From a virus: a DNA stretch of 64,000 nt. The notes beneath the pieces were generated by a model that saw only the letters and a list, made by a program, of their open reading frames with translations, searched no databases and was not told where the DNA came from. Shown piece by piece: positions 1,665 through 64,000 of this stretch. The stretch covers positions 4,041 to 68,040 of IMG/VR virus record IMGVR_UViG_3300034101_003860; one strand, written 5' to 3'. The position numbers and the translations under genes were made by a program. Every line of letters starts with the position of its first letter. The first letter of the stretch is position 1.

Positions 1665-1701
1665 AATGATAGAGCCCCTAGCAATAGGGGCTTTTATCAT
1701 T
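1665..1701 (+). terminator. intrinsic terminator-like hairpin
   Basis: AATGATAGAGCCCCTA-GCAA-TAGGGGCTTTTATCATT inverted repeat right after ssb stop. Confidence 0.8.
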
Positions 1702-1717
1702 TTAGGACTATTAAAAT

Positions 1718-5863: not shown

Positions 5864-5870
5864 AAACTTT

Positions 5871-6596: not shown

Positions 6597-6603
6597 GTGA
6601 GTT

Positions 6604-13628: not shown

Positions 13629-13637
13629 ATATCAAGC

Positions 13638-13961
13638 CTATTCTTCTGTGCCGCTACAAGCAGTAAGTTCAATATTTGGACAATCATCGATTGCTTCAAA
13701 ATCTTTTAATACAACAATAGACCTTCGTTCGATTTTTAATTCTGTCTCTTCTAATCTAATGCAAGTTACGACATTCAAGCATTGATCTATAGTTGCCCAC
13801 TGTAAGCCTCCGTTTGGTCTATGAACCAATATTTGTGGAACATCATTCTGGTGTCCAGGTATTTGCTCTATTGGTTGATTAAAAAATCTATATTTTCTAT
13901 TATCTTCTGGTGCGCCAAAAATTTGCTCTACATTTGTACATTGGGAAGCTGGGTCGGCCAT
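13638..13961 (-). CDS. hypothetical tail-associated protein
   Basis: AGGAG RBS; position in tail operon. Confidence 0.7.
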   Translation of the reverse strand: MADPASQCTNVEQIFGAPEDNRKYRFFNQPIEQIPGHQNDVPQILVHRPNGGLQWATIDQCLNVVTCIRLEETELKIERRSIVVLKDFEAIDDCPNIELTACSGTEE

Positions 13962-13978
13962 ATTTTTCTCCTATTAAA

Positions 13979-21867: not shown

Positions 21868-21870
21868 ATT

Positions 21871-51467: not shown

Positions 51468-52060
51468 AAAATTTCTCTTATATGACTTAGTAATCTATCT
51501 TTGTCGCTTTTGGGTACTTTACTGCCATTTTTAAGTTTGAGATAAATTAGCCGAAATTCCCCATTAAGATTTTCATCTAGTATTTTTAGTATTTCTATAT
51601 TTTCTAAAGAATTAGTTCTATGATCTAGAAAAATATTACTATAATCTTTAGTTTCTTCTAGAGTGGTAAGATGCATCAAATTCTTTTTATTTTCGTTTCT
51701 TTTGCTCCATGTTTCGTATAGATCACAATCATATTTGTTACTATATTTTGTGCAGAGAGAATTTTTCTTGTCGAAAAGAGGACAAGAGTAACAGGGTTTG
51801 TCGGGCCTTTGATAGTTATCTCTTTTGTAATTAAAAAGTCGATTGCGAACGTGGGTCCAAAGAAAGTTTTCTAGGGGCCTTTTGTGATCATAATTTTTTA
51901 ACCCTTCCAAAGCAAAAATGCTTATCTGTTGCTTCATATCTTCTATATCATGATAGCCAAATTTAAATTTGTAGGCTAATTTTTTAGTAATAATATCTAT
52001 AACTTTTAATAGTTCGTTTTCATCAATCTGGGGATTCGGTCTTTTTTTCTTCTTTTTCAT
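51443..52060 (-). CDS. phage sigma70-like factor (region 2 plus Cys-rich insert); likely late sigma
   Basis: DIEDMKQQ..ALEGLKNYD..LENFLWTHVRNRLFN region-2-like; CYSC..C..C insert. Confidence 0.7.
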   Translation of the reverse strand: MKKKKKRPNPQIDENELLKVIDIITKKLAYKFKFGYHDIEDMKQQISIFALEGLKNYDHKRPLENFLWTHVRNRLFNYKRDNYQRPDKPCYSCPLFDKKNSLCTKYSNKYDCDLYETWSKRNENKKNLMHLTTLEETKDYSNIFLDHRTNSLENIEILKILDENLNGEFRLIYLKLKNGSKVPKSDKDRLLSHIREILWQKNADN

Positions 52061-52175
52061 TAAGAATTTCGCCTAGAGTTTTTTGGGGATCTTCAACATT
52101 AAGGTCTTGTGAAATGTCCAAATGTGAACTAGCAACTACTTTTAGCTCGCTCGGAATAATATTCTCAATTTTCAT
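52023..52175 (-). CDS. small hypothetical protein (50 aa, not in ORF track)
   Basis: AAGGA RBS; MKIENIIPSELKVVASSHLDISQDL...TESPD*. Confidence 0.55.
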   Translation of the reverse strand: MKIENIIPSELKVVASSHLDISQDLNVEDPQKTLGEILNEKEEKKTESPD

Positions 52176-52212
52176 AATTTGTCCTTGCGTTAAGTGAACA
52201 ATGTTGTACTAT

Positions 52213-52241
52213 ATAATAAGTTATTAGTACACTTTTGTCAA
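52213..52241 (-). promoter_or_regulatory. sigma70-type promoter for sigma/packaging operon
   Basis: TTGACA-17 nt-TATTAT on minus strand, spacer contains GTGTAC. Confidence 0.6.
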
Positions 52242-52256
52242 AAAGGAACAACTATT

Positions 52257-52481
52257 ATGGGTAATTATAAAAAGTGGAGTGATGCAGAGTTGGGGTTTGT
52301 TAGGGATAATATTGAAGTTTTGAGTGATAGTGAATTGGCCAATAAGCTGAAAGATATGACGGGTGAAAATATTACTACGGGAATGGTAAGACGTCAAAGA
52401 CGCAAGTTGGGTATTGCTAAAGCTCGTGGTCGTAGAAAAAAGATCAAAGATACTGCTCCACAGTTACATTCAGAAACCTGA
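52257..52481 (+). CDS. small HTH DNA-binding protein
   Basis: KWSDAELGFVRDN..SDSELANKL..VRRQRRKLG; AAGGA RBS before ATG 52257. Confidence 0.7.
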   Translation: MGNYKKWSDAELGFVRDNIEVLSDSELANKLKDMTGENITTGMVRRQRRKLGIAKARGRRKKIKDTAPQLHSET

Positions 52482-52509
52482 AACAATAATTGTATTCGGT
52501 ATTCTAAAG

Positions 52510-52539
52510 AAGCATCAGATTCGTCTGGTGCTTTTTTTT
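52510..52539 (+). terminator. intrinsic terminator
   Basis: AAGCATCAGA-TTCG-TCTGGTGCTT plus T run. Confidence 0.9.
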
Positions 52540-52686
52540 GTTTGGTTATGGGGCTAATAAGAAGGTTTAGGTAATACATTTTAGTTATGAGGGGCTTATT
52601 GAGTTTGGACCACCGCCGCGTTTTGGGGGTTATACCCCCCATTGGTGGCAAAACAGAAAAACCCCCCATAGGTGGGGAAAGGCTAT

Positions 52687-52703
52687 AGCAAATCCTGTGC
52701 CAA
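52687..52703 (-). promoter_or_regulatory. sigma54 -24/-12 consensus site
   Basis: TTGGCACAGGATTTGCT (GG-N10-GC). Confidence 0.7.
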
Positions 52704-52826
52704 AAACTCGAAAACTTACAATGTCGATAGAATATGGTTTCGACTATTTTTTTTAGTTGACAATGCCGATACTAAATGTAGGATAGTGGCATGATTACGA
52801 TGGAAACCCACAATGGAGATAGTAAG

Positions 52827-53084
52827 ATGCAAACGAATGGTGCGGTTATCACTGGACGCTACATGATCGCAAGCCGCAGGGATGGTCGCGTTTTTAGTGG
52901 CATGGTCGAGTCGGTCAAGGCTCTAGACAAGGGTACGCTTGTGGTGCTAACGTGGTTTTCCCACGACGAAGAAAACTATGGTCACAAGTATCGTTCGTTT
53001 TATCTTGACAGCCTCACCGGCTGGGAAATGTATCTTGATGGCGAAGAGTACGATTGTGCGATTGCTTGCATGGTCGAGGCATAG
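52827..53084 (+). CDS. small SH3/WYL-like beta protein, paralogue 1
   Basis: GGAG RBS; KGTLVVLTWF..YRSFYLD. Confidence 0.7.
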   Translation: MQTNGAVITGRYMIASRRDGRVFSGMVESVKALDKGTLVVLTWFSHDEENYGHKYRSFYLDSLTGWEMYLDGEEYDCAIACMVEA

Positions 53085-53147
53085 ACTGGCCGATATAGGG
53101 GTATCTTACATCCTCCCCCCTATGGGGGATAACCTAGGAAAAATAAA

Positions 53148-53336
53148 ATGAACAATCTTGATAAGATTTTCGGTGCTATGCGAACTGGCAAGTATGGTAC
53201 GATTGTTGACCCGAAGGGCAAGGTATACGTCGGGATTATTAATAGCATCATGAGGGAAGATGGTAGCGGTCGCAACTGGATTGTAACCGTCACGAATCTG
53301 ACCACGACCGACAAGATTTTCATTCACGCTAACTGA
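53148..53336 (+). CDS. hypothetical early protein
   Basis: AGGA RBS; 62 aa. Confidence 0.7.
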   Translation: MNNLDKIFGAMRTGKYGTIVDPKGKVYVGIINSIMREDGSGRNWIVTVTNLTTTDKIFIHAN

Positions 53337-53349
53337 AAAGGATAGAAAA

Positions 53350-53511
53350 ATGAGCGATTTTGAGCGGATTATCGCGGATAGCATGATCGACGAGGATGGG
53401 CAAGAGTGGACGGTTGGGTATTTTGGGGTGGATCTGGATGATGAGGAAGAATACATCGACCACGAGGAAGACGCAGACTGGGACGTTTATGGGGAAGAGG
53501 AGTTTGCATAA
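53350..53511 (+). CDS. very acidic 53-aa protein (not in ORF track)
   Basis: AAGGA RBS; MSDFERIIADSMIDEDGQEW...EEEFA*, 22 D/E versus one R. Confidence 0.7.
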   Translation: MSDFERIIADSMIDEDGQEWTVGYFGVDLDDEEEYIDHEEDADWDVYGEEEFA

Positions 53512-53584
53512 CCCCCCGATGGTAGGGATAACCACACTCTCCCCCACATGGGGGATTGTACCACCCAAACTGGGCCGTTAGAAC

Positions 53585-53653
53585 CTGCCAAAACGGCATA
53601 CAAGGCAGACTGCCAAAATGGCAGAAATCGCGCGAAATCTGCCAAAATGGCAG
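53585..53653. repeat. paired palindrome CTGCCA-N3-TGGCAG, unit 1 (plus extra degenerate copy)
   Basis: Copies at 53610 and 53639 (29-bp pitch); degenerate copy at 53585. Confidence 0.95.
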
Positions 53654-53658
53654 CCACC

Positions 53659-53701
53659 AGCAAATATCGTGCCAAACTGCCCCCAGCAAATATCATGCCA
53701 A
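53659..53701 (-). promoter_or_regulatory. two tandem sigma54 -24/-12 consensus sites
   Basis: TTGGCACGATATTTGCT (53659-53675) and TTGGCATGATATTTGCT (53685-53701). Confidence 0.7.
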
Positions 53702-53786
53702 ATGAAAATCTTTTTTTCTCTATTTCTTTTTTTTGACAATGCCGATATAGAATGTAGGATAAGTGAAAAGGAAAAGGAGATTGAAA

Positions 53787-53921
53787 ATGTTTGACGATGC
53801 CGAATATATCTCGCAGTGCTGCGGTTGCCCGGTTGACGTACCTTGCCCAAGCGATCCGGTCGATGATATCGTCGTGATTTGCCCAGATTGTCAAGAATGG
53901 ACGTCGATTGAAATCGAGTGA
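53787..53921 (+). CDS. small acidic Zn-ribbon protein (44 aa, not in ORF track)
   Basis: AAGGAG RBS; SQCCGC...ICPDC. Confidence 0.7.
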   Translation: MFDDAEYISQCCGCPVDVPCPSDPVDDIVVICPDCQEWTSIEIE

Positions 53922-53978
53922 TTTTTTTTGTTGACAATATCGATACTAAATGTAGGATAGCAGTATCACAAGGGAGAA

Positions 53979-54227
53979 ATGCAAATGGAAAGCCGTTGCG
54001 ACAAGTTTGGTACGGTTCAGGTGAACAAGGGTTTCGAGTGTGTCAAGCATAACGGCAAGGGTTATGCTGGAAATATCGTCAAGGTGTCGGCTCACCCTAG
54101 GGGTACACTTGTCACGATTGAATGGTATCTCCCGCGTGATCCTAGTCCCACCTATCGGTCGGTCTATCTCGAAGAGTGTGAAGTGTGGTGGACTCACACT
54201 TATAACCGCGAAGTTATCACCCATTGA
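53979..54227 (+). CDS. small SH3/WYL-like beta protein, paralogue 2
   Basis: KFGTVQV..FEC.K.NGK.YAG.IVKVS..GTLVTI..YRSVYLEEC. Confidence 0.75.
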   Translation: MQMESRCDKFGTVQVNKGFECVKHNGKGYAGNIVKVSAHPRGTLVTIEWYLPRDPSPTYRSVYLEECEVWWTHTYNREVITH

Positions 54228-54246
54228 ACGAAAAGGAAAGCAAACG

Positions 54247-54429
54247 ATGAATGATGAAATCCGAAATCTGGCAAACGCTCTCGGCCTTGTGGTCGCATCG
54301 GTATGGAATGGATACACTCGACGATGGATTGTGAGCGAACGTGACGCATACTACCCCCTCTATACTACTACCGATTATGCTACGCTGATCGAAGGATTGA
54401 AGAATGGAGGACGATTCCCCCCATTGTAG
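54247..54429 (+). CDS. hypothetical early protein
   Basis: AAGGA RBS before MNDEIRNLANAL. Confidence 0.65.
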   Translation: MNDEIRNLANALGLVVASVWNGYTRRWIVSERDAYYPLYTTTDYATLIEGLKNGGRFPPL

Positions 54430-54531
54430 GGAATACCCCCCTCCGAAGTAGGGTGGGCTACAATACCCCCCTTATGGGGGTTGTCTCAGCCGAGCCTCTC
54501 GGCTTACAATAATGACAGTCAGCCAGTGAGA

Positions 54532-54575
54532 CTGCCAAAATGGCAGGCGCCGCGCGCTTTCTGCCAAAATGGCAG
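54532..54575. repeat. paired palindrome unit 2
   Basis: CTGCCAAAATGGCAG at 54532 and 54561. Confidence 0.95.
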
Positions 54576-54579
54576 GCAG

Positions 54580-54622
54580 AGCAAATCTTGTGCCAAACGC
54601 CCACCAGCAAATATCATGCCAA
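54580..54622 (-). promoter_or_regulatory. two tandem sigma54 -24/-12 consensus sites
   Basis: TTGGCACAAGATTTGCT (54580-54596) and TTGGCATGATATTTGCT (54606-54622). Confidence 0.7.
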
Positions 54623-54711
54623 ACAAAAAATATTTTTCCACAATCTTTTCCTCTTTTTTTTTGTTGACAATGCCGATACCTAATGTATAATCGAGGTATA
54701 ACCAAGAGGAA

Positions 54712-54972
54712 ATGAAAATGAGTAAGTTTGGAACGGTTCAGGTTGGATACGATTTCGAGTGCCTGAAGAATAACGGTAAGCGGTATGCCGGTGAGATTGT
54801 CAAGGTTTCATCGTATGCTAAGGGTACGCTGGTCACGATTCGATATTATGAGTCAGATGCCTACAAAAACTCGTATGGGGAGTGGGTCGAGGGTTTTAGT
54901 CCAGTTCACAAGTCGATATATCTTGAAGATTGTGCCGAATGGTACACTGAGGAGCCAGCCCCCCAATACTAG
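54712..54972 (+). CDS. small SH3/WYL-like beta protein, paralogue 3
   Basis: Clear similarity to 53979-54227; HKSIYLEDC. Confidence 0.75.
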   Translation: MKMSKFGTVQVGYDFECLKNNGKRYAGEIVKVSSYAKGTLVTIRYYESDAYKNSYGEWVEGFSPVHKSIYLEDCAEWYTEEPAPQY

Positions 54973-55011
54973 GGGGTTGTGCAGTTTGGTAGGATCAAGT
55001 CAGAAAGGAAA

Positions 55012-55212
55012 ATGGTCATGTTCATCATTATGAAACGTTCGCGAGCATATGAGGGGGCCACACCCCTCGACGCCTACAGTGTTCCCGAAACGTGTGCCTG
55101 TGCTGGTGTTGAACCCGGCAAGGTATACAATAGTCGGGAGTCTGCCCAAGTTGATGCCGACAAGTTGAGCCGGTACAATCCTATCGGGTTTGTTGTGGTT
55201 TCCTGTAAATAA
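55012..55212 (+). CDS. hypothetical early protein
   Basis: AAGGA RBS before MVMFIIMK. Confidence 0.6.
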   Translation: MVMFIIMKRSRAYEGATPLDAYSVPETCACAGVEPGKVYNSRESAQVDADKLSRYNPIGFVVVSCK

Positions 55213-55240
55213 GTTTTTCTCACCACTAAGGGTATCAAAA

Positions 55241-55558
55241 ATGTTTCCGATTATTGAAAAAGCCAAGCGTCAAGCCTACCTTTGCTTCGTGGGTCTGGCT
55301 ATCCCCTGCGACAAGTCTACGGCCGATGGCGGTATGATTCGGTCTGAAAAGGTTCTGAAGTTCAATCGGTCTGCTATGCGTGATAGTGTCAACGTCAAGG
55401 CCGAAAAGGTTGACCCCCGAATGAGTGGGGGTGAGGATACGATGATTGTTAAGGTGGGCAAGCCGGGTAGTCGGGAGAGGGTAGAGGCTTTCCGGTCACA
55501 ATATGACGCTATCGCCGCTATGGGCGAGGAAGTATCCCCCTTCGCTTGGGAGGGGTGA
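55241..55558 (+). CDS. hypothetical early protein
   Basis: ATG 55241 (MFPIIEKAKRQ). Confidence 0.7.
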   Translation: MFPIIEKAKRQAYLCFVGLAIPCDKSTADGGMIRSEKVLKFNRSAMRDSVNVKAEKVDPRMSGGEDTMIVKVGKPGSRERVEAFRSQYDAIAAMGEEVSPFAWEG

Positions 55559-55577
55559 CCCACCCACGAGAGGGGTT

Positions 55578-55642
55578 CTGTCAAGTTGGCAGCCTTGACT
55601 GCCAAAATGGCAGAAATCGCGCGAAATCTGCCAAAATGGCAG
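55578..55642. repeat. paired palindrome unit 3 (plus extra degenerate copy)
   Basis: Copies at 55599 and 55628; degenerate CTGTCAAGTTGGCAG at 55578; 55597-55665 identical to 53608-53676. Confidence 0.95.
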
Positions 55643-55647
55643 CCACC

Positions 55648-55664
55648 AGCAAATATCGTGCCAA
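55648..55664 (-). promoter_or_regulatory. sigma54 -24/-12 consensus site
   Basis: TTGGCACGATATTTGCT. Confidence 0.7.
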
Positions 55665-55754
55665 AAGCCAAAATATTATTTTGCTATTTTTTTTGTTTGA
55701 CATTCAAGGTATGGCTGGTAGAATACCGATATACCTAGCAGAGAGGAAAAGAAA

Positions 55755-55970
55755 ATGATCGAAAACAAAATCAAAGATGCACTGACTCAGATTTGGGGAA
55801 GCGAGTCTCACAACGTAACTTTTCTGGCAACCCCCGATGGTCGGCTGTACGCTGAGTGTGAGTCTACTATGGATCGTCGCCGGTTGACTGATAGTAACTA
55901 TCGTGAGATTCTGAACGATATGTTTTATATTTACTGTCTGGAAAATGCCGCTTGGATGGGGGTTTCATAG
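55755..55970 (+). CDS. hypothetical early protein
   Basis: GAGGA RBS, own promoter. Confidence 0.7.
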   Translation: MIENKIKDALTQIWGSESHNVTFLATPDGRLYAECESTMDRRRLTDSNYREILNDMFYIYCLENAAWMGVS

Positions 55971-56141
55971 TCCCCCTGTTGTGGGGGTTGATTTGTCTTA
56001 TCCGATCCTATCGGATTGGCAAGGTGGGCTATAGTCAGCCAAAATGAGGGCCTAATGGAAATCGTGAGTTTGGTATTGACATTGTGGATATCGGGTGGTA
56101 TGATTCTTAGTGTGGTTTGGTTGCTCTCTTTGGAGTAAAAA

Positions 56142-56357
56142 ATGGATTACCAGAAAATCTATAAGTTTGATAATGGTTATGGGGCTAGTGTGGTTTGTAA
56201 CTTTGGAACCTATGGGGCCAAAGATGGTCTTTTCGAGGTTGCCGTTCTTGACAGTAACGGAGAGATTGCATACAATACGCCCGTTGCTAGTGACGTTATC
56301 GGCTGGCTTGACTTTGCAGACGTTGCGGATATTCTGAATAAGATTAAGGCTCTCTAA
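56142..56357 (+). CDS. hypothetical phage protein
   Basis: GGAG RBS; FDNGYGASVV..YG..GLFEVAVL motif common in small phage proteins. Confidence 0.75.
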   Translation: MDYQKIYKFDNGYGASVVCNFGTYGAKDGLFEVAVLDSNGEIAYNTPVASDVIGWLDFADVADILNKIKAL

Positions 56358-56372
56358 TCTAAGGAAAATAAA

Positions 56373-56675
56373 ATGACTTACGCCGAAGCGGTTTCTATGG
56401 TGCAAGGTAAAACCAATCGTAAGACTCGAAAGATTGGTAATAATACCTATGCGGAAATCGAGTATGATAACAGTGTTTCTATTCGGTTGCATGGTACATC
56501 GGTTGTAAGGTTTTATCCTAATGGGCTGGTGAAGTTGAATAGTGGCGGGTGGCGAACCAGCACCACAAAAGATAGAATCAACAAGTATAGCCCCGTGAGT
56601 GTTTACCAAAAAAACTTTGAGTGGTTTTTGCGTGATCATACTCCGTTTGAAGATAATATCTTGGTTCGTAACTAA
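56373..56675 (+). CDS. hypothetical phage protein
   Basis: AAGGA RBS; LHGT.V..LNSGGWRTSTTKDRIN. Confidence 0.75.
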   Translation: MTYAEAVSMVQGKTNRKTRKIGNNTYAEIEYDNSVSIRLHGTSVVRFYPNGLVKLNSGGWRTSTTKDRINKYSPVSVYQKNFEWFLRDHTPFEDNILVRN

Positions 56676-56690
56676 AGAAAGGGGCTAGGG

Positions 56691-56801
56691 ATGGCCGATT
56701 ATATTAACTGGTATGTATTCTTTGCTGGATTTACTATTGGTGGTGCTTGTGTTTATAGTATTTGTGAACTACTTTTTCCTTTGAGTAAAAAAGATGAATA
56801 A
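56691..56801 (+). CDS. small membrane peptide (36 aa)
   Basis: MADYINWYVFFAGFTIGGACVYSICELLF hydrophobic span. Confidence 0.45.
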   Translation: MADYINWYVFFAGFTIGGACVYSICELLFPLSKKDE

Positions 56802-56868
56802 GGCGGATTATATTCTGTTGAGTTTCTCTTTTGTGATGGGCTGCGTTCTTACCTATCTTCTCAACTAA
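56794..56868 (+). CDS. small membrane peptide (24 aa)
   Basis: MNKADYILLSFSFVMGCVLTYLLN*, overlaps upstream stop. Confidence 0.35.
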   Translation: MNKADYILLSFSFVMGCVLTYLLN

Positions 56869-56876
56869 AACAAGGG

Positions 56877-56920
56877 CTGCCAATATGGCAGTTTCCGCGG
56901 CCGAGCTGCCAAAATGGCAG
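56877..56920. repeat. paired palindrome unit 4
   Basis: Copies at 56877 and 56906. Confidence 0.95.
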
Positions 56921-57002
56921 AGATTATTTTTGTGGATTTTTTTAGTTGACAAACCGATATCTAATGGTAGAATCAGCGTATCACCCCAACGGAGAAACGA
57001 CG

Positions 57003-57191
57003 ATGAATCAGTTTCCTCGGATGATGGCTCTTCTGGACGATACGGACACGATCAATGCTCTTCTGGCTCAACTGGTTGATGATGGATCAGTCGAGCCGAT
57101 TGATGATCCTAATAACCTGACCGACTTTTGGGATTGGGCCGAAGTGGTCGGGATTGTGGATGAGTTTGCCCCTATTGACAGCATGGTTTGA
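57003..57191 (+). CDS. small acidic protein
   Basis: GGAG RBS before MNQFPRMMALLDD. Confidence 0.7.
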   Translation: MNQFPRMMALLDDTDTINALLAQLVDDGSVEPIDDPNNLTDFWDWAEVVGIVDEFAPIDSMV

Positions 57192-57212
57192 TTAGTGTAA
57201 AAAGGATAAGTC

Positions 57213-57479
57213 ATGAGCCACCCCGATCCCCTTTACGATAAGGAAAACACGATGAGCCAGGATTCTTTTGACCGTTTCGATGATATGGCCGAGCGTACCA
57301 TTTATCCGTGGATTGACGATGAGTCGCACGACAGCGACGATGCTAACTACGATGACCATGATGACTTTTTCGATGAGGATGATTACGACGATAGCATGGA
57401 CGGAGATCATGATTCCGCGATGGAATCGGCGGGTTGGGGAACCGACGAGGACTACGGATACTACGGAGACGATTATTGA
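57213..57479 (+). CDS. extremely acidic protein
   Basis: AAGGA RBS; Asp-dominated; DGDHDSAMESAGWGTDEDYG C-terminus. Confidence 0.75.
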   Translation: MSHPDPLYDKENTMSQDSFDRFDDMAERTIYPWIDDESHDSDDANYDDHDDFFDEDDYDDSMDGDHDSAMESAGWGTDEDYGYYGDDY

Positions 57480-57492
57480 GCAAAACCCCGAT

Positions 57493-57536
57493 CTGCCAAA
57501 ATGGCAGCGGGGCCGCGATTTCTGCCAAAATGGCAT
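57493..57536. repeat. paired palindrome unit 5
   Basis: Copies at 57493 and 57522. Confidence 0.95.
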
Positions 57537-57615
57537 ACAAAGATTTTCTTATTTTTTTTCTTGACAGTGCCGATCTATATGGTATCCTTAGAGCATCACC
57601 CCAAAGGAAACGATA

Positions 57616-57951
57616 ATGACCTACAACGGCTATTCTAACTACGAAACGTGGGCTGTTCAGTTGTGGATCGACAATAGTGAATCGTCCAGTGCGTTCTGGC
57701 ATCGGCTTGCGGAAGAGATTTATAATCACGCAGCATCCGAACAGGCTCATTTTAGCAAGGTCGAGGATGCTACTTGTATTCTGGCCGAAAAACTCCGCGA
57801 TAGTTACAACGGCGGAATGGAAGCGCTTTTGAGTGATGGTAACGCAACCGGAACAGTTTGGGCCGATTTGCTGAACGCTAGTGTTTGTGCTGTTAACTTC
57901 CATGAGATTGCCAAGAATCTGATGGAAAGTGTTGTAGCAGTTCCTGCTTGA
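57616..57951 (+). CDS. conserved phage early protein (YNGYSNYETW family)
   Basis: AAGGA RBS; YNGYSNYETWAVQLWIDN...VNFHEIA. Confidence 0.75.
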   Translation: MTYNGYSNYETWAVQLWIDNSESSSAFWHRLAEEIYNHAASEQAHFSKVEDATCILAEKLRDSYNGGMEALLSDGNATGTVWADLLNASVCAVNFHEIAKNLMESVVAVPA

Positions 57952-58015
57952 CAAACGATTTTCTTGTGGTATGCTAGTTTTATTGAGTGAAGGATTTCTA
58001 AACGAAAGGGTTTTT

Positions 58016-58423
58016 ATGAACGACACGATTCTTTTTGGTTTGATTTTTGCTGGTGTGGCCGCTGCTATTTGTGCGTTTTCGTGGTTTCATGTTTATCGTG
58101 GAGTGCATGATAGTCTTACGAATGCTAAGGTTGGTCAGGTTTATAACTTTAAGTATTTGCAGCCTGTGACTGATGTGCCTGAGCGTTTTATGGCTAGGGT
58201 GGTTGGTGTTCAAACTTTTACTGAGGATTATCTTAGTCGTTTGAATAGTAAGAGTCGTTATCGTCGGAATGATCCTGAGTTTCAGCGTAGTAAGCATCTT
58301 GTGACCGCTCAAACTTTTGATGGTAAGATTAGGAACTTTTATGCTGAGCGAACCACGGATGTTCGTCGCCCCCTGTTGGGAGGGGTACTCTTTAAGAGTG
58401 GAATGGCGAGCCTCTTCTTTTAG
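58016..58423 (+). CDS. membrane-anchored protein with WYL/SH3-like domain
   Basis: N-terminal TM helix; YNFKYLQP...HLVTAQTFDGKIRNFYAERT. Confidence 0.6.
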   Translation: MNDTILFGLIFAGVAAAICAFSWFHVYRGVHDSLTNAKVGQVYNFKYLQPVTDVPERFMARVVGVQTFTEDYLSRLNSKSRYRRNDPEFQRSKHLVTAQTFDGKIRNFYAERTTDVRRPLLGGVLFKSGMASLFF

Positions 58424-58435
58424 GAGGTTCCTCGT

Positions 58436-58479
58436 CTGCCAAAGTGGCAGGCGGGCCGCGAAAACTGCCAAAATGGCAA
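58436..58479. repeat. paired palindrome unit 6
   Basis: Copies at 58436 and 58465. Confidence 0.9.
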
Positions 58480-58526
58480 GATATTTTCTCACTTGACAAC
58501 CTTCTAACAGCCGATACAATAAGCGT

Positions 58527-58673
58527 ATGATTACATCAAACTGCTACTCTTGGAAAGTTTTTCGTTTTAGCCATACATTTGTTGGTTATGTTATGGCTAG
58601 TTCTCAATATGAAGCCAATATTCTTGCAAAAGAAAAGTATGGCGATTTCGTTTGGATTGAACGAGTTCGCTAG
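58527..58673 (+). CDS. small hypothetical protein (48 aa), probably leaderless
   Basis: ATG 7 nt after the -10 box TACAAT; no SD. Confidence 0.55.
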   Translation: MITSNCYSWKVFRFSHTFVGYVMASSQYEANILAKEKYGDFVWIERVR

Positions 58674-58676
58674 TCT

Positions 58677-58748
58677 GGCCCCGTAGTATAGTGGTTAGTA
58701 CACTGGGCTTTCATCCCAGAGACTGGAGTTCGATTCTCCACGGGGCTA
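58677..58748 (+). tRNA. tRNA-Glu (TTC)
   Basis: Cloverleaf: GGCCCCG/CGGGGCT, CTGGG-CTTTCAT-CCCAG, TGGAG-TTCGATT-CTCCA; no encoded CCA. Confidence 0.92.
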
Positions 58749-58750
58749 CT

Positions 58751-58880
58751 AGAGAGAACAGGAATCGTAAACCCGCCACTCTCAAAATCCAATGAGTCCA
58801 ACCAAAGGATTTGTGGCTATGGCTACCCTGTCTCTTCTAATCCTTCGGATTTGGTTAGCGTGGTGTAGTCAGCGAGAAGC
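58751..58880 (+). ncRNA. candidate small structured RNA after tRNA-Glu
   Basis: GAGAACAGG/CCTGTCTC, GCCAC/GTGGC, AAATCC/GGATTT nested stems; no ORF. Confidence 0.45.
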
Positions 58881-58942
58881 ACAAAAAATATTTTTTCAAG
58901 AAACCCTCTTGACAAGCCGATAATAGATAGTACAATGATTGA

Positions 58943-59383
58943 AGAACAAGTGAAAACTTGTTGGTTATGTCGGGCCGAGTAGCCGGTAAAAACGGTAGTT
59001 GATGTCCTAGGAAACGTCTTCTACAATCGGTCCTAACAATACAAACATCCGTGGGTCAAGCCAGACTAGATTGGGATAACCACTTCGATTATAGATATAC
59101 ATACCGTGTTGATCACTGGTCAAAAACTGTATATCGTTGCCTGTTGGGGTTATACAACGGGCTAGAAGTCCAATCTATGAGGGATAGCGTCCTCACCACG
59201 GCCAATACAACCAGTAACCGTTCCCAAGAGCCAGACCAGAGCGGGTCTTATGTGCTAGCAATGCCCGCTTTGCAGGGAGGATTTCCGTGGACGGTTTCCA
59301 CCAGTTTTTACCTTGCTCCAAGGGTTCATAATATCGGAGTATTGGTGGGTTATAGAATCGGGGCGTAAACGATTCGCTGGTTG
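58943..59383 (+). ncRNA. candidate large structured ncRNA (~440 nt)
   Basis: Own promoter (58909-58936), no credible ORF, more than 12 complementary segments in nested multi-branch arrangement. Confidence 0.75.
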
Positions 59384-59423
59384 ACAAAATAAAAACACAG
59401 TGTAGAATACGAGAGTAAGACAT

Positions 59424-59510
59424 GGCGGGCGTAGCGTAATGGTAGCGTGTGTAAAATCGGTGGCAGAGATCTACTGTCTACACGAAATGGTTCGATTCCA
59501 TTCCCCGTCC
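59424..59510 (+). ncRNA. tRNA-like element with enlarged anticodon arm
   Basis: D arm (GCGT-AATGGTA-GCGT), T arm AATGG-TTCGATT-CCATT, GGCGGG/CCCGTC acceptor; 25-nt insert in place of the anticodon loop. Confidence 0.65.
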
Positions 59511-59513
59511 CTA

Positions 59514-59670
59514 GTCACCAACGAAACTCCGATTCATTCGGTGTGCTACCCTCCATAATGAGATCATAGCCTATATTGGTGACACAATACAACTCTGCTG
59601 ATAGTTTCCTTAGAAATAAGGTTGAATAAATATAGTGCCGAGTGCTTATTCGTAAAACTATCAGTGTGTC
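59514..59670 (+). ncRNA. candidate structured RNA(s) after tRNA-like element
   Basis: GTCACCAA/TTGGTGAC stem; CTGATAGTTT/AAACTATCAG stem enclosing CCTTA-GAAA-TAAGG and GAATAA/TTATTC. Confidence 0.5.
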
Positions 59671-59713
59671 GGCCAAAATGACAGGCCGAGCGGCCGATCT
59701 GCCAAAATGACAG
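59670..59713. repeat. paired palindrome unit 7
   Basis: Variant copies (..AAATGACAG) at 59670 and 59699. Confidence 0.9.
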
Positions 59714-59784
59714 ATATTTTTTTGTGGACTTTGCGTATTGACAAGCCGATAATAGACTATAGAATACGAGCATAGGAGAGAAAC

Positions 59785-59958
59785 ATGAATCACGACCCAT
59801 ATTGGACATTCCCACAGTTTCCTGAGAATAATACTTGGGAGATTCGCTATTTGTGTTGGCGAGCGTGTGGCGAAACCAGAGAACACAGCACACGACTCGC
59901 TAATGAGGGACGTATGCCTGCTAACTGGTGGATGCTTTACAGAGATGATGGAAGGTAA
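59785..59958 (+). CDS. small hypothetical protein (57 aa, not in ORF track)
   Basis: AGGAG RBS; MNHDPYWTFPQFPENN... Confidence 0.65.
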   Translation: MNHDPYWTFPQFPENNTWEIRYLCWRACGETREHSTRLANEGRMPANWWMLYRDDGR

Positions 59959-59959
59959 A

Positions 59960-60160
59960 ATGAGAATAAGTAAAAAACAAATATCAGATGCTCTTAGTAT
60001 TGATAGTGACGATCTATCGTCAAAGGATATGGGTATTGCATTATTGAACATTGAGAGTATACTTGATAGCGTTGCTGAAAACCTTGATGATGATTTTGAA
60101 TCTGCGGCTTTGGGCGATGCTTCTAATCTAATACAAATGATAAGAGAGGCATTGACTTGA
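59960..60160 (+). CDS. small acidic helical protein
   Basis: ATG just after upstream stop (MRISKKQISDAL). Confidence 0.6.
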   Translation: MRISKKQISDALSIDSDDLSSKDMGIALLNIESILDSVAENLDDDFESAALGDASNLIQMIREALT

Positions 60161-60187
60161 CGATAAAGAATGGTATAATGGTGACAA

Positions 60188-60304
60188 ATGAGAATCTTCC
60201 GTAAAATAATTCTGTTCTTGCCGTCTTTGACCATGTTCTTTCTGGCATACTTTAGTTTTATTTGTGATAACGAGGCTACACACTTTAGTTTTAGGTGGAA
60301 ATAA
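60188..60304 (+). CDS. small hydrophobic peptide (38 aa)
   Basis: ATG shortly after TATAAT; TAATG coupling to next ORF. Confidence 0.4.
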   Translation: MRIFRKIILFLPSLTMFFLAYFSFICDNEATHFSFRWK

Positions 60305-60396
60305 TGACCGTTAATGAGTTTATTGACGAGTTTCTTGATCCAAAGTTTCAAGAAATATTGAAGATTGTGGAACAGGTTTTGGAGGAAAATAAATGA
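60304..60396 (+). CDS. small peptide (30 aa)
   Basis: Coupled on both sides (TAATG, ATGA). Confidence 0.45.
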   Translation: MTVNEFIDEFLDPKFQEILKIVEQVLEENK

Positions 60397-60617
60397 ACTG
60401 GCATTATGATAATCCTATTAGGGACCGTAAGTATCTTTGTTGTGTAAAGGGATACTCTGAACCTATTGATCTTCTCTGGAATAAAGAGCAGGGAGGGTGG
60501 GGTGATTGGTGGCATGGTGAATATGACGATGGTTTGGCAGAATGGGATCAGTTTGACAATGATCTAGTGGTATGCTATATTGGTTTTGATGAGATTCCTA
60601 TGCCGGAGGGTTGGTAA
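60393..60617 (+). CDS. Trp-rich small protein (DUF551-like)
   Basis: GGAGG RBS; MNW...P...YLC...W...VVCY..IPMP. Confidence 0.65.
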   Translation: MNWHYDNPIRDRKYLCCVKGYSEPIDLLWNKEQGGWGDWWHGEYDDGLAEWDQFDNDLVVCYIGFDEIPMPEGW

Positions 60618-60871
60618 TGGAATGGCTTAGTTTTTTTGGTTATCGTCGCCCTATTAATGGGCAAAAGGTTTATTACTTTGGGCCAGATATTGGGGTATGG
60701 CGGGGAAGATATGAGATTCATAGAGATGATCCTGTGAGTGAACATATTCTTATTTGTGAAGAAAGTCCCGGTCTTGTGGATCGTATGGATGCTCCGTGGT
60801 GGATGCCGTATGAGGGACAACCAAAACCAAAACGACCAACTACCGATTATCCAGAGGATTACCCGCAATGA
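60617..60871 (+). CDS. Trp-rich small protein (DUF551-like)
   Basis: MEWLSF..RRPINGQKV...WWMP..P. Confidence 0.65.
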   Translation: MEWLSFFGYRRPINGQKVYYFGPDIGVWRGRYEIHRDDPVSEHILICEESPGLVDRMDAPWWMPYEGQPKPKRPTTDYPEDYPQ

Positions 60872-61026
60872 TTACTATTTCAACCGATGAGTTTCGTCGT
60901 CTTATCGGCCATATTCAGGAGTACCTTGACAATCCTAATCTACCTAATACAATGGCGAAGATTGCTATCGACACCCTAAAGATGTACGATATTGAAGCCT
61001 ACGAGGAAAATGCAAAAAATGAATGA
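60868..61026 (+). CDS. small hypothetical protein (52 aa)
   Basis: GAGG RBS, ATGA overlap. Confidence 0.55.
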   Translation: MITISTDEFRRLIGHIQEYLDNPNLPNTMAKIAIDTLKMYDIEAYEENAKNE

Positions 61027-61192
61027 AGATCGTGAAAAGGCTATGGTTACTATCATCAACTTTTTTAACTCTCGCATGGGTGCGATGAGCAAGAATAATG
61101 TAGATAAGGCTAAAGAGTTGATCTCTACTCATGAGATTGCGGCTTCTGAACTGGTGGATAAATACGTGAGGCTTGTCTATGAAAACTCTTAG
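61019..61192 (+). CDS. small hypothetical protein
   Basis: MNEDREKAMVTIINFF; overlapping operon. Confidence 0.6.
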   Translation: MNEDREKAMVTIINFFNSRMGAMSKNNVDKAKELISTHEIAASELVDKYVRLVYENS

Positions 61193-61304
61193 TGATATTT
61201 GTCCGTGTGGGGCGTGTGATGTTCTGGTGTGGAAGTATGATGATTATGGATTAATCTGGAACTTCTGCCAGCAATGCCATTGGTGGTATATCGACAACGA
61301 TTAA
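61179..61304 (+). CDS. small Zn-ribbon protein (41 aa)
   Basis: GAGG RBS; CPCGAC...CQQC. Confidence 0.5.
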   Translation: MKTLSDICPCGACDVLVWKYDDYGLIWNFCQQCHWWYIDND

Positions 61305-61348
61305 CTGCCATAATGGCGGTGGTCGCGGCCGAACTGCCAAAATGGCAG
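61305..61348. repeat. paired palindrome unit 8
   Basis: Copies at 61305 and 61334. Confidence 0.9.
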
Positions 61349-61400
61349 AATATTTTTCTTATAGAACGGTATTGACAGTGCCGATACTAATGGTATACTT

Positions 61401-61535
61401 AGGGAAACAATGGGCGGGGACAACCACAATGATATCAAAGAAGGTTGTCTGAAATGTCCGTCGAGTATGGCCCAAGCCGACATTGTTTTTCCTAATCCTC
61501 CGGATTTGGCTGGGGTGGCTGTAGTCAGCGAAAGT
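61401..61535 (+). ncRNA. candidate small structured RNA
   Basis: Own promoter (61372-61399); AAACAATG/CATTGTTT closing stem, GACAACC/GGTTGTC inner stem; no ORF. Confidence 0.55.
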
Positions 61536-61591
61536 TTAAAGATCTTGACAAGAGTTGGTCGATAGAGTATACTCTAGTTATAGGAGAAAAA

Positions 61592-61816
61592 ATGGATATG
61601 AGCGTTATAGCAAGATTTGAGGCTCTGGACAGACTTAGTGAATCTCTTACAAAGCAACAGATTGAAGATTTACAGATAGTTATTAAAAACACCAAAGAAG
61701 AACTAGAGATTTGTGAAAACTGTGGAGATAGTTGGGTTGGAAATACAGAAAAAACTCTAGAGATGCTTGCTAACAGTTTAAACTTTCAACCAGACTATCC
61801 TGAATACGACTATTGA
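61592..61816 (+). CDS. hypothetical protein
   Basis: AGGAG RBS, own promoter. Confidence 0.7.
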   Translation: MDMSVIARFEALDRLSESLTKQQIEDLQIVIKNTKEELEICENCGDSWVGNTEKTLEMLANSLNFQPDYPEYDY

Positions 61817-61847
61817 CAACTGATAGCCGATAGAATATAGTATAAGC

Positions 61848-62273
61848 ATGAAACAGAAACCACTATACGGCGAAGTTCGTTTTCACCTTTCTAACGGTGA
61901 GCATTATATGCACTGGCAAGTTAAGGTTAAGCAGGGTGGAAAAACTGTTGATGTGTATTATTATGACCCCAAAGAATATCAGTTGGAAATGAGGGGTTGT
62001 AAGTTGTGGAACCGGCCGAATAAGGCTAAACAGGTATTTGAGGCTGGTGTGCATGATGTTAGTGGGTGGGTGCGGTGTGAAGAAGTTATGTTGAGGAAGG
62101 ATTTTCATCCCGCTCTACCTATTGACAATCTTGAGAAGTTGTTTTATAATCCACTTCGTGATCCACACTGGCGACGAGAAAGCGACAATAACGAGTTCGT
62201 TTGGGACGGTAGCGAGTATGCTACTCTTCTGACTAACGGCAAACAAGTTTACATTTTGGAAGAAAGGATTTAA
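61848..62273 (+). CDS. hypothetical phage protein, probably leaderless
   Basis: VRFHLSNGEHYMHWQVK; ATG directly after -10 box. Confidence 0.7.
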   Translation: MKQKPLYGEVRFHLSNGEHYMHWQVKVKQGGKTVDVYYYDPKEYQLEMRGCKLWNRPNKAKQVFEAGVHDVSGWVRCEEVMLRKDFHPALPIDNLEKLFYNPLRDPHWRRESDNNEFVWDGSEYATLLTNGKQVYILEERI

Positions 62274-62644
62274 TGATGATTAATCTGCAACTGAGCGTTC
62301 GTGAGGCTATGGAACTTGCTTTCTATGCTAGGGAGGACATTAGAGAGCGTATCACTCAGGCTTTTGAGGTGGCTTTGGGTGTGAACCAGCGTTGTACTGT
62401 TACGATCACTAGGGGTATGAGTTTGGATAACCGTATCCCGTGTATCAAGGCTATTCGCCAGTATACTGGTTGGGGTTTGAAGGAGAGCAAGGAGTGGACT
62501 GATGATCTGGTTGGTGGTTGGAAGGGCGATAGGTTCGTTCCTGCTACTCACCACACCAACAGCATCACTCTCAAGAATCCTGAGATGGCGGAAAATCTGC
62601 TGCGTGACCTGACCACTTTGGGTTGTGAGGGTTATCTCTCATAA
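62273..62644 (+). CDS. protein with ribosomal bL12 (L7/L12) C-terminal-like domain
   Basis: NRIPCIKAIRQYTGWGLKESKEWTD matches the bL12 K.VIK.VR..TGLGLKEAK motif. Confidence 0.75.
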   Translation: MMINLQLSVREAMELAFYAREDIRERITQAFEVALGVNQRCTVTITRGMSLDNRIPCIKAIRQYTGWGLKESKEWTDDLVGGWKGDRFVPATHHTNSITLKNPEMAENLLRDLTTLGCEGYLS

Positions 62645-62688
62645 CTGCCAAAGCGGCAGGCGCCGCGGCCGATCTGCCAAAATGACAC
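62645..62688. repeat. paired palindrome unit 9
   Basis: Copies at 62645 and 62674. Confidence 0.9.
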
Positions 62689-62872
62689 CCAAAAAATATT
62701 CACGAACGGCTGTTGACTTGCCGATACTCTATGGTAGAATGATAGCATCACACGACAAGACGCCAACCGATCACGACAACACAAAAGTTCGGATTGGCTC
62801 TTGACAAGTGATGATTGGGATGATAAGATACGTTTGTTCGGTTTGATTAACACTAACTTGGAGAGATTTACC

Positions 62873-63127
62873 ATGAAGAAGTTTTCGTTTGTTGTTGATA
62901 TTGTTGCTACTGATCTTGACCGTGAGGTTGTGGTTGATTCGATTGGTGATTGTCTGCGTGATGCTCTGCCGTCCGATGTTCATGCTAACGTCAAGGCCGG
63001 TGAGGTCAAGGCTTTTAGCGAGCAGGGTTATAAGGTTTGGCGGGCTAGGGTTACTGGCGTGACTGCCAAGGCTGCTGGCGATGCTCACAATAGCAAGGTC
63101 GAGCAGGAAGTCGAGGCTGTTGCCTGA
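62873..63127 (+). CDS. hypothetical protein
   Basis: GGAG RBS before MKKFSFVVDIV. Confidence 0.7.
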   Translation: MKKFSFVVDIVATDLDREVVVDSIGDCLRDALPSDVHANVKAGEVKAFSEQGYKVWRARVTGVTAKAAGDAHNSKVEQEVEAVA

Positions 63128-63150
63128 GCCTAGCATATCTACTATAATAT

Positions 63151-63191
63151 CCGATAGACCGCTAGTGGCGAACTGGCGGCTATCGGTTTTT
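63151..63191 (+). terminator. intrinsic terminator-like hairpin
   Basis: CCGATAG-A-CCGCTAGT-loop-ACTGGCGG-CTATCGG-TTTTT. Confidence 0.7.
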
Positions 63192-63193
63192 AT

Positions 63194-63265
63194 GGCCCCA
63201 TAGTTAAATGGATATAACAACTGCCTTCTAAGCAGTTATTGGAGGTTCGATTCCTCCTGGGGCTA
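63194..63265 (+). tRNA. tRNA-Arg (TCT)
   Basis: Cloverleaf: GGCCCCA/TGGGGCT, ACTGC-CTTCTAA-GCAGT, GGAGG-TTCGATT-CCTCC; no encoded CCA. Confidence 0.93.
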
Positions 63266-63270
63266 TTATC

Positions 63271-63314
63271 CTGCCAAAACGGCAGGCTCCGCGGCCGATC
63301 TGCCAAAATGGCAG
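63271..63314. repeat. paired palindrome unit 10
   Basis: Copies at 63271 and 63300. Confidence 0.95.
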
Positions 63315-63387
63315 CTATTTTTCTTCAAGTTTTTTTGCTTGACAAGCCGATATTCTATTGTAGAATCAGTAGCACAGGAGACATAAA

Positions 63388-64000
63388 ATGAAAACAGCAG
63401 ACGGTAACGATAAGTTGGGCAAGGGTTGCATTGTGGTTTCGCGTCCGGTTGGCGATACTTGTCCGTCCGATTGCGACTATCTCAATAATGGCTGCTATGC
63501 TGAGGCTACGGAAAATCAGTATAAAAATGCTCGTACTGCCGGGTTTGCTAATCTAGTCACGGAAAAGCATAAAATCCGTGCTATGATTCTTGACGCTAAG
63601 AAGCGTAAAAAGTCTATTCGCTGGCACGAACGTGGCGACTGGTTTCTCAATGGCGAACTTGACCTAGACTATGTTGCTAATGTAACGTGGGCGTGTGAGA
63701 GTATTCTTGCCGATGGTGATAGTCTGCCTGATATGTGGTTTTATACCCATATTTATGATAGTCGGCTTGTTGCACTGGAAAAGTATATGAACGTATATGC
63801 TAGTGTGCATGATGATAATGATATGGGCGAGGCTATGGCACAAGGCTTCAAACTGTTCGCATGGTGCGATAGCGATATGAAAATCGCCCCGAAGCGTCCA
63901 AAGAGTAAAGTCAAGGCGGAAGCATGGAGGAAAGCGTTGCCCAAACTTGTTGTGCTGAATGGTAGCAAGTTTGTAACGTGTCCGGAAATCCGTCGTGGTC
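63388..64000 (+). CDS. GP88-like Cys-motif protein (radical-SAM-related fold), runs off window
   Basis: AGGAG RBS; GNDKLG..TCPSDC......CYA, IRWHERGDWF, WFYT. Confidence 0.7.
   Translation, partial: MKTADGNDKLGKGCIVVSRPVGDTCPSDCDYLNNGCYAEATENQYKNARTAGFANLVTEKHKIRAMILDAKKRKKSIRWHERGDWFLNGELDLDYVANVTWACESILADGDSLPDMWFYTHIYDSRLVALEKYMNVYASVHDDNDMGEAMAQGFKLFAWCDSDMKIAPKRPKSKVKAEAWRKALPKLVVLNGSKFVTCPEIRRG

Follow-up and report, generated by a model that had tools for sequence, protein, structure and literature searches.

The stretch of viral DNA considered here, a window of 64,000 nucleotides covering bases 4041–68040 of the 68,040-bp IMG/VR viral record IMGVR_UViG_3300034101_003860 (CheckV completeness 49%), carries near its right-hand end ten pairs of short palindromes, each heading a small gene cassette with a sigma70-type promoter. 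The explanation that best accounts for the data as a whole is that the 44-bp pair forms a composite double-stranded DNA site for one protein, serving as the shared operator of an early-cassette regulon, with a 73-aa helix-turn-helix (HTH) protein encoded next to the array as the candidate binder. On the sequence evidence assembled below, we consider this explanation somewhat likelier to be right than wrong.

All ten CTGCCA-N3-TGGCAG pairs that the original prediction had reported were recovered (Table 1), with a start-to-start distance of exactly 29 bp and a GC-rich linker of constant 14-bp length in every one of them. When a single mismatch was allowed, CTGCCANNNTGGCAG matched 19 times in the window, exclusively between 53610 and 63314, against a chance expectation of 0.11 (standard deviation 0.35), and none of 100 shuffled sequences reached this number. 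Up to two arm mismatches gave 24 sites in the window, 22 of which fall within 53585–63314; the remaining two, at 14174 and 20378, are isolated singletons with two mismatches. The arms are perfect in 13 of the 20 paired copies, the weakest copies (59670 and 62674) have two mismatches, and two additional degenerate single copies start at 53585 and 55578. A further conserved element often precedes copy 1 (54488–54531 in the window, and in many related loci), consisting of a short GC hairpin followed by a ACAATAATGACAGTCAGCCAG-like sequence; a hairpin of the form C5-N3-4-G5 lies ahead of copy 1 in other units.

The pair is shared by a group of related phages. With AAA centres and an N14 linker, the exact pair occurs in 61 IMG/VR stretches, equal to 49 contigs by count and up to 224 kb in length. 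Five relatives rated complete by CheckV (150–224 kb) contain 17–37 single sites each at no more than one mismatch, and in the three complete relatives for which pairs were counted there are 13 (G005), 14 (G003) and 17 (G001). The listed sites form a single block of 9–20 kb per complete relative, and successive sites are spaced by 29 bp in 309 of the 402 spacings of 120 bp or less. Both the pitch and the position of the pairs are therefore conserved in relatives, which was the outcome on which the original prediction had made itself depend. Among 185,579 species genomes, the paired pattern with free centres was found once, on a 1.8-kb contig of a metagenome-assembled genome (MAG), and this contig reads as a fragment of the early region of such a phage; the collection gave no sign of prophages. 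The pair is therefore a phage feature, and not one of host chromosomes or prophages. The window and G005 have collinear early regions of mosaic similarity, with patches of 70%–87% identity and some intervening cassettes that have no nucleotide match, and in G005 one further pair lies about 0.6 kb past the position corresponding to the end of the window. The block spans the terminal repeat of the record in G003 and is internal in G001, and the records of G000, G002 and G005 end within or beside it. These record ends are probably assemblies breaking in repeats, not true genome ends, so that calls of a genome end in this clade need care.

The organisation of the cassettes downstream of the pairs is equally regular. 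Every unit has a TTGAC(A/T)-16-TAnnnT promoter downstream of the pair, and the gaps between copy 2 and TTGAC(A/T) in units 1–10 are 79, 88, 54, 25, 24, 13, 24, 23, 24 and 24 nt, which bears out the earlier statement that in six units the second copy ends 23–25 nt before a −35 box. In all six of them the gap is occupied by an A/T tract (T-tracts). This gap, together with the 16-bp promoter spacer, places the site centres of the common gap class near −66 and −95. A Shine-Dalgarno sequence and an ATG are readable after the promoter in 7 of the 10 units, and the region holds 74 promoter-like sites where 22.8 are expected. The general order of a cassette is the pair, zero to three copies of an element termed here the B box, phased T-tracts resembling UP elements, TTGACA-16-TAnAAT, a Shine-Dalgarno sequence and ATG. 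For the 109 units that lack B boxes, the distance between copy 2 and the −35 box is 21–26 nt in 69, 12–16 nt in 14 and 33–36 nt in 8; these classes are steps of about 11 bp, matching one, two or three phased T-tracts. In 173 distinct promoter-oriented units the information content is at most 0.2 bit on the 5′ side of copy 1 and 1.7–2.0 bit from its first base on, and the pair thus forms a sharp 5′ boundary to the repeated promoter cassette. In 42 of these units copy 1 directly adjoins a stop codon, and in 90 a stop codon lies no more than 12 nt away.

Two other elements of the promoter region deserve mention. A conserved (C)CGAT(A) box lies 3–5 nt past the TTGAC of 13 early promoters (52757–63351), with 15 matches in the window against 0.8 expected; in unit 3 it is located just past the −10 element and not in the spacer. 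This box may be a second operator, overlapping the core promoter. In the related loci L010, L028 and L057, three to four ATCCTAAC-like repeats replace the T-tracts between the B boxes and a −35 box of the TTGAAT/TTGAAA type.

Whether the pair is conserved as a DNA site or as an RNA fold was assessed on the first 150 of 166 available units (the ten window units and 156 distinct promoter-oriented units from the related loci), which gave 145 distinct rows. Under a model of two hairpins, 94.2% of cells are paired, as in shuffled alignments (94.2 ± 0.1%; 225 of 500 shuffles as high), with 3 cells showing double changes, 16 G-U cells and 101 unpaired cells. Under a model of one long hairpin, 77.3% are paired against 78.3% in shuffles, and five linker pairs are unpaired in 86–100 of the 145 rows. 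Covariation was thus found for neither hairpin model in the 145 rows. Eight columns are invariant, namely G3, G11, C13 and G15 in copy 1 and T31, G32, C34 and C42 in copy 2, and these arm bases indicate base-specific reading. In the lineage of the window itself almost every centre reads AAA on the coding strand, and the promoter-oriented units of lineages L031, L060 and L012 have TTT, TTA, ATT, AAT, TAA or AAA; because both orientations occur in these three lineages, the centre is best described as W3 without a fixed strand. The linker is represented by 176 distinct sequences in 200 units, with positions 4–10 being 83%–100% G/C and the central positions reading C/T then G/A (a YR step). Its central tetramers are about as frequent as their reverse complements (CCGC 44, GCGG 36; GTAG 9, CTAC 7), and it is not self-complementary, having 2.41 palindromic pairs of 7 compared to 2.72 in shuffles. 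These properties describe what looks like a dyad-like double-stranded target, with the arms read by base contacts and the centre and linker by shape, and not a stem. The combination by which an intrinsic terminator is recognised, a GC-rich stem with a U-tract and compensatory pairing, was not found, the share of paired cells being equal to the shuffled value, and units with B boxes have no U-tract after copy 2 at all. The lenient scan for terminators, passed by four of the ten second copies, also identified a textbook intrinsic terminator behind the gene of the 73-aa protein (Table 1), which demonstrates that the phage has canonical terminators elsewhere.

The best candidate for the protein binding the pair is the product of the gene directly upstream of the array, a basic 73-aa protein with a putative HTH of the GcrA type. 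Its family comprises 150 database clusters at E ≤ 0.001, and the 120 listed are 64%–100% identical to the window protein, unnamed and nearly all of about 73 aa. There are 28 invariant columns and an AT-hook-like C-terminal tail, RGR(R/P)KK, and 6 of 28 members match the Pfam family AT_hook. Searching 1.84 billion representatives with the family profile gave 585 relatives at E ≤ 0.001, some of them long and composed of three to seven tandem copies of the N-terminal half. Three of ten longer relatives exceeded the cut-off of 26.9 bits for the DNA-binding part of Pfam GcrA (PF07750), at 54, 44.3 and 33.2 bits, and several of the ten match HTH families of the sigma70 region 4 type. The 73-aa protein of the window itself has no Pfam match at E ≤ 0.05; a protein atlas lists GcrA clusters for it, with a feature score of 0.84 and a TM-score of 0.54. 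Of 64 fetched loci, 24 carry the gene, always upstream of the pairs and on their strand; it also occurs in 4 of the 5 complete relatives and in 2 of 5 further fragmentary contigs.

One other identity for this protein was considered and rejected. Single-sequence matches to the C-terminal RpoN box of sigma54 are weak (E = 0.074 in PDB; 0.073 in Pfam, for 1 of 28 members), they are lost with the family profile, and hhalign against the C-terminus of Escherichia coli RpoN returned a probability of 0.76%. In a separate search, matches to phrog_323, a ‘D5-like regulator’, were weak, and the phrog_323 profile matches 13 of 14 control genomes as well. On the opposite strand, divergent from the array and the 73-aa gene, the phage encodes a sigma70-family factor (Table 1), which implies a later, phage-directed promoter class following the early cassettes served by host sigma70. 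One ORF (open reading frame) of G005 matches Sigma70_r4 at 1.2e-10 and is inferred to be the counterpart of this factor. The genes that follow the sigma factor gene encode a 269-aa protein that has an HTH at its N-terminus and may be the small terminase, then an HNH protein, an ERCC4 nuclease and the large terminase.

The B boxes raise the question of a link to sigma54. The −24/−12 consensus of sigma54 promoters is TGGCAY-N5-TTGCW, which six boxes in the window match perfectly (Table 1), and the inverted TGGCAG elements of the pairs themselves resemble the −24 element. Units 1–3 carry the boxes between copy 2 and the A/T tract, and one box precedes the promoter at 52757. Their plus-strand form is AGCAAAT-N4-TGCCAAA, as all six read on the minus strand and point away from the genes. 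The profile over the related loci is TTTGGCAC-RRNAT-TTGCT, with GG and GC near-invariant and N5 variable, and here boxes occur in both orientations. The first box begins 4–6 nt after copy 2 (51 cases) and the last lies 46–48 nt ahead of the −35 box (40 cases). They are concentrated at the start of the array: the first units carry them in 24 of 26 cases, the second in 17 of 19, the third in 9 of 14, the fourth in 8 of 12, and those from the fifth onward in 7 of 46. Nevertheless, a sigma70-type promoter was still present in every unit inspected. One candidate arrangement, a sigma54 −12 element within the linker, was dismissed, as GC stands at the right distance from the flanking TGGCAG in 125 of 176 linkers, compared to 115 expected.

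The original prediction had likened the pairs to NtrC-type enhancer sites, and this part of it is not supported in the window. As in an enhancer for a bacterial enhancer-binding protein, tandem dyads about three turns apart are present (29-bp pitch in all ten units), but a −24/−12 promoter driving the downstream gene is lacking: boxes accompany only three of the ten pairs, the other seven units have none, and the genes follow sigma70 promoters. RpoN was not found in the five complete relatives, and their matches to the sigma54-activator family PF00158 reached no more than 14 bits and were of a generic AAA+ kind, so that the link to sigma54 is kept as a minority reading. PF04552 was not matched in the MAG carrying the phage fragment, for which no completeness is given, and the literature searched contained nothing relevant on sigma54-type boxes in phage early control. 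One form of this link is that the lake-phage clade gates its sigma70 early promoters via a sigma54-linked platform, in which pairs and B boxes would dock either the host sigma54 holoenzyme or a small TGGCA-reading phage HTH protein, which would act on the first early cassettes as a switch or an insulator. We regard this as unlikely; if true, it would be a use of the sigma54 promoter code undescribed for phage early control. A second form, to which we assign a slightly lower likelihood, takes the pairs as upstream activating sequences that an NtrC-type enhancer-binding protein of the host would recognise, and the B boxes as sigma54 promoters or holoenzyme docking sites that gate or insulate the first early cassettes. 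The six perfect boxes within 3 kb, their near-invariant GG and GC, their concentration in the first cassettes and the spacing of the dyads, which is the usual layout of such activating sequences, are what one would expect from it. It is difficult to reconcile with the retained sigma70 promoters, the boxless majority of window units, the occurrence of boxes in both orientations, the lack of RpoN and of a clear activator in the five complete relatives, and the single phage-derived occurrence of the exact pair among the species genomes. Additionally, the window boxes are antisense and 4–6 nt from copy 2, which would place the pair at about +1 to +40 of such a promoter.

Three other explanations were weighed. 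The palindromes could be RNA hairpins at the 3′ ends of cassettes, terminating, attenuating or stabilising the upstream transcript, with the promoter as a separate element, in strict analogy to the promoter-early stem-loops (PeSLs) of T4-type phages. The frequent upstream stop codons next to copy 1, the ability of each 15-mer to form a 6-bp stem with a 3-nt loop and the T-runs after copy 2 in the short units are compatible with this, a lenient scan marks four of the ten second copies as terminator-like, and PeSL stem-loops terminate transcription in RB49 and phi1 according to PMC2839356. Nevertheless, we rate this explanation as quite improbable: covariation is absent and sequence variants mostly break pairs, the linker is not complementary, B-box units lack the U-tract, the fold z-scores are modest, the conservation of sequence far exceeds what a stem needs, and a terminator does not need a quantised distance to the −35 box. 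A role as repeats without any trans-acting partner, that is, as homology blocks or recombinase sites driving gain, loss and exchange of cassettes, appears to us very improbable. It would agree with the collinear yet mosaic early regions of the window and G005, with conservation that starts exactly at copy 1 and with the precedent of PeSL recombination (PMC2839356; PMC4122927). Homology alone, however, would not maintain dyad symmetry, a 29-bp pitch, a variable but GC-rich linker and near-invariant arms amid diverged flanks, and no recombinase was noticed beside the array, although no systematic search for one was made. Finally, the array might be a decoy, titrating a host DNA-binding regulator off its chromosomal sites, as the original prediction had offered as an alternative. 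At least 20 high-affinity-looking sites per genome, multiplied by phage replication, could serve this purpose, and if the target were a conserved host protein, one would expect the motif to be constant over many phages, as it is. On the other side, nothing in a decoy calls for a fixed promoter phase or a fixed place at the cassette edge, and the paired form is absent from bacterial genomes (the species genomes were searched for pairs); this is the explanation to which we give the least credence.

In the operator model that we favour, two dimers or four monomers of one sequence-specific protein would occupy the pair in a fixed geometry, the HTH helix of the 73-aa protein reading TGGCA and its AT-hook-like tail the A/T centre. 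Since the site recurs in each cassette with an unchanged helical phase, one protein could act on all early units together. We would prefer timed silencing or insulation of the early promoters over activation: these promoters would have the strength to fire with host sigma70 polymerase alone, the phage sigma factor taking over afterwards. Being near-consensus and preceded by UP-like tracts, they have no obvious need of an activator. A secondary role of the conserved modules, each about 100 bp long, might be to offer homology for cassette exchange, in the manner of PeSLs. The original prediction of a regulon-wide operator for one protein is, as an interpretation, supported in its core, a double-stranded DNA site, by the lack of covariation, the W3 centre in either orientation, the shape constraint on the linker and the quantised gap to the −35 box; its specifics are not. 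In particular, class I activation from sites at about −65 and −95 is disfavoured, as the 29-bp pitch does not correspond to whole turns and −66 does not share the helical phase of the classical class I positions.

Several observations weigh against the operator model or narrow its support. The 29-bp pitch is about 2.7 helical turns, so that the two sites of a pair are not on one face of the helix, and −66 and −95 would be at an unusual distance from the promoter if the protein were a repressor. Folding of the palindromes is possible, with minimum free energies of −19 to −24 kcal/mol for units of 78–79 nt and modest z-scores of −0.4 to −3.8, and the terminator-like second copies mentioned above count on the same side. 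The 73-aa protein was not found in the complete relative G002 by a profile search at E ≤ 1, with the array there running into the record end, and it could equally bind the B boxes or the CCGATA spacer box. Moreover, the relatives were retrieved via the exact consensus, which makes one pair per locus conserved by construction, and the units are paralogues and not independent samples.

Comparison with known systems shows partial similarities. The closest are the PeSLs (PMC2839356; PMC4122927). Like them, the array is made of composite modules of about 100 bp that recur among the small ORFs of a plastic region; it further shares with them the combination of a palindromic element, an AT-rich tract, an early promoter of sigma70 consensus and a Shine-Dalgarno sequence, and a cassette content that is mosaic between relatives (ten units in 10 kb; mosaic homology to G005). 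It differs in that a PeSL is a poly-G/poly-C stem-loop, whereas the palindromic element here is an exact double dyad, invariant in pitch and sequence and lacking fold covariation; a terminator function is not indicated here, B boxes and the CCGATA spacer box are additional, and the phage is siphovirus-like, with a 4189-aa tape measure, and not a T4-type myovirus.

The stoperators of mycobacteriophages L5 and D29 are single, asymmetric sites of about 13 bp that function in an orientation-dependent manner and are bound by the prophage repressor. By contrast, the sites described here are paired, dyad-symmetric, located upstream of promoters and found in an apparently virulent phage. The conserved upstream (CUP) repeats of the leading region of IncN plasmids are likewise promoter-operator modules that head several early-entry genes of a mobile element under regulon-like control, but they are much longer, plasmid-borne, under a different, known repressor and without sequence relation to the pair. 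NtrC-type enhancers resemble the array in having two dyads roughly three turns apart, with sigma54-consensus boxes beside some of the pairs, and differ in that the genes here are served by sigma70 promoters and the boxes stand 4–12 bp from the pair in either orientation, mostly antisense. The position at the cassette edge is also reminiscent of integron attC-like sites. N4-type hairpin promoters for a virion RNA polymerase were rejected: a 6-bp stem with a 3-nt loop is present, but the giant ORF matches tape-measure families and the centre triplet is not strand-fixed. What does connect the array with the stoperators, which PMC12266134 presents as dispersed operator-like sites, is the placement of many copies of one such site in short intergenic spaces, so that one protein can reach many transcription units. 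The literature searched with the motif strings contained no prior description of the pair, only two unrelated primer matches, and a broader look for operators brought up just the study on D29.

The remaining genome places these cassettes in a long-tailed, siphovirus-like phage that is predicted not to be of the T4 type and is apparently virulent. Public sequencing runs containing this DNA are labelled lake water or freshwater metagenomes, and none is recorded as RNA. The tape-measure-like ORF, the only giant ORF of the window, has 4189 aa compared to 3428 aa for its counterpart in G005, lengths that imply an exceptionally long tail. The large terminase is only about 24% identical to terminases of Bacillus siphoviruses; in G005 the corresponding ORF (20138–23227) has 1029 aa against 679 aa in the window, which suggests that an intein, a homing element or the like has been inserted there. 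Rightward of about 52.2 kb, and up to the last base of the window, the GC content rises from 0.30–0.40 to 0.40–0.48 and the GC skew becomes positive. Measured as 52001–64000, the early region (0.40–0.48) is markedly richer in G+C than the remaining genome (0.28–0.40), with an equal step in G005 (1–15000). Small plus-strand ORFs fill the stretch from about 52.2 kb, several of them matching GP88/DUF7227, DUF7249 and Kyano_Gp96. Searches of cultured phage records by megablast and blastn with the region, one unit and the 73-aa protein returned nothing relevant, the region being without a DNA-level match, and an Rfam scan of 52–64 kb detected only tRNAs. A third tRNA-like sequence at 59425–59509 (plus strand) is below the Rfam threshold (26 versus 29 bits) and was not called by ARAGORN; it lies just after a consensus promoter at 59381.

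Table 1. Palindrome pairs, promoters, B boxes and other features of the window (positions in window coordinates)
Feature	Position	Strand	Remarks
Unit 1 pair (15 + 14 + 15 bp)	53610–53653		degenerate third copy at 53585–53599
Unit 2 pair	54532–54575		motif scan
Unit 3 pair	55599–55642		degenerate third copy at 55578–55592
Unit 4 pair	56877–56920		motif scan
Unit 5 pair	57493–57536		motif scan
Unit 6 pair	58436–58479		gap to −35 box 13 nt, one helical turn less than in other short units
Unit 7 pair	59670–59713		copy 1 with 2 arm mismatches
Unit 8 pair	61305–61348		begins right after the stop codon of the upstream ORF
Unit 9 pair	62645–62688		begins right after a TAA stop; copy 2 with 2 arm mismatches
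Unit 10 pair	63271–63314		5 nt past tRNA-Arg
Unit 1 sigma70-type promoter (TTGACA-16-TAGGAT)	53733–53760	+	T-tracts ahead
Unit 2 sigma70-type promoter (TTGACA-16-TATAAT)	54664–54691	+	
Unit 3 sigma70-type promoter (TTGACA-16-TAGAAT, TG extension)	55697–55724	+	
Unit 4 sigma70-type promoter	56946–56973	+	
Unit 5 sigma70-type promoter (TTGACA-16-TATCCT)	57561–57588	+	
Unit 6 sigma70-type promoter	58493–58520	+	
Unit 7 sigma70-type promoter	59738–59765	+	
Unit 8 sigma70-type promoter	61372–61399	+	
Unit 9 sigma70-type promoter	62713–62740	+	
Unit 10 sigma70-type promoter	63339–63366	+	ahead of GP88/DUF7227-family gene starting at 63388
Six B boxes	52687–52702, 53659–53674, 53685–53700, 54580–54595, 54606–54621, 55648–55663	−	perfect TGGCAY-N5-TTGCW
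Gene of 73-aa basic HTH protein	52257–52481	+	directly upstream of the array, own intrinsic terminator
Textbook intrinsic terminator	52506–52537	+	terminator scan; belongs to the gene of the 73-aa protein
Phage sigma70-family factor	51443–52060	−	Sigma70_r2, 7e-5; divergent from the array and the 73-aa gene
Large terminase, 679 aa	47930–49969	−	family match
4189-aa ORF, tape-measure families	23643–36212	−	family match; only giant ORF of the window
DNA polymerase III alpha subunit C-terminal end and several glycosyltransferases	among genes at 1–12 kb	+	family match

To our knowledge, almost nothing is known of early-gene control in large uncultured phages. The module described here is a precise and synthesisable cis-regulatory grammar, whose parts are a double operator, sigma54-like boxes as an optional element, phased T-tracts, a consensus promoter and a box in the promoter spacer. 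Dozens of lake phage genomes share it, with a single small candidate regulator encoded beside it, and regulon-wide early control is thereby directly testable in vitro without culture of the host. In metagenomic contigs it further marks where the early region lies and where its cassettes are bounded. In its resemblance to PeSLs, the pair with its promoter cassette looks like a variant on a known architecture, and it would provide a second, independent example of the promoter-cassette organisation that is thought to drive gene shuffling in T4-type phages.

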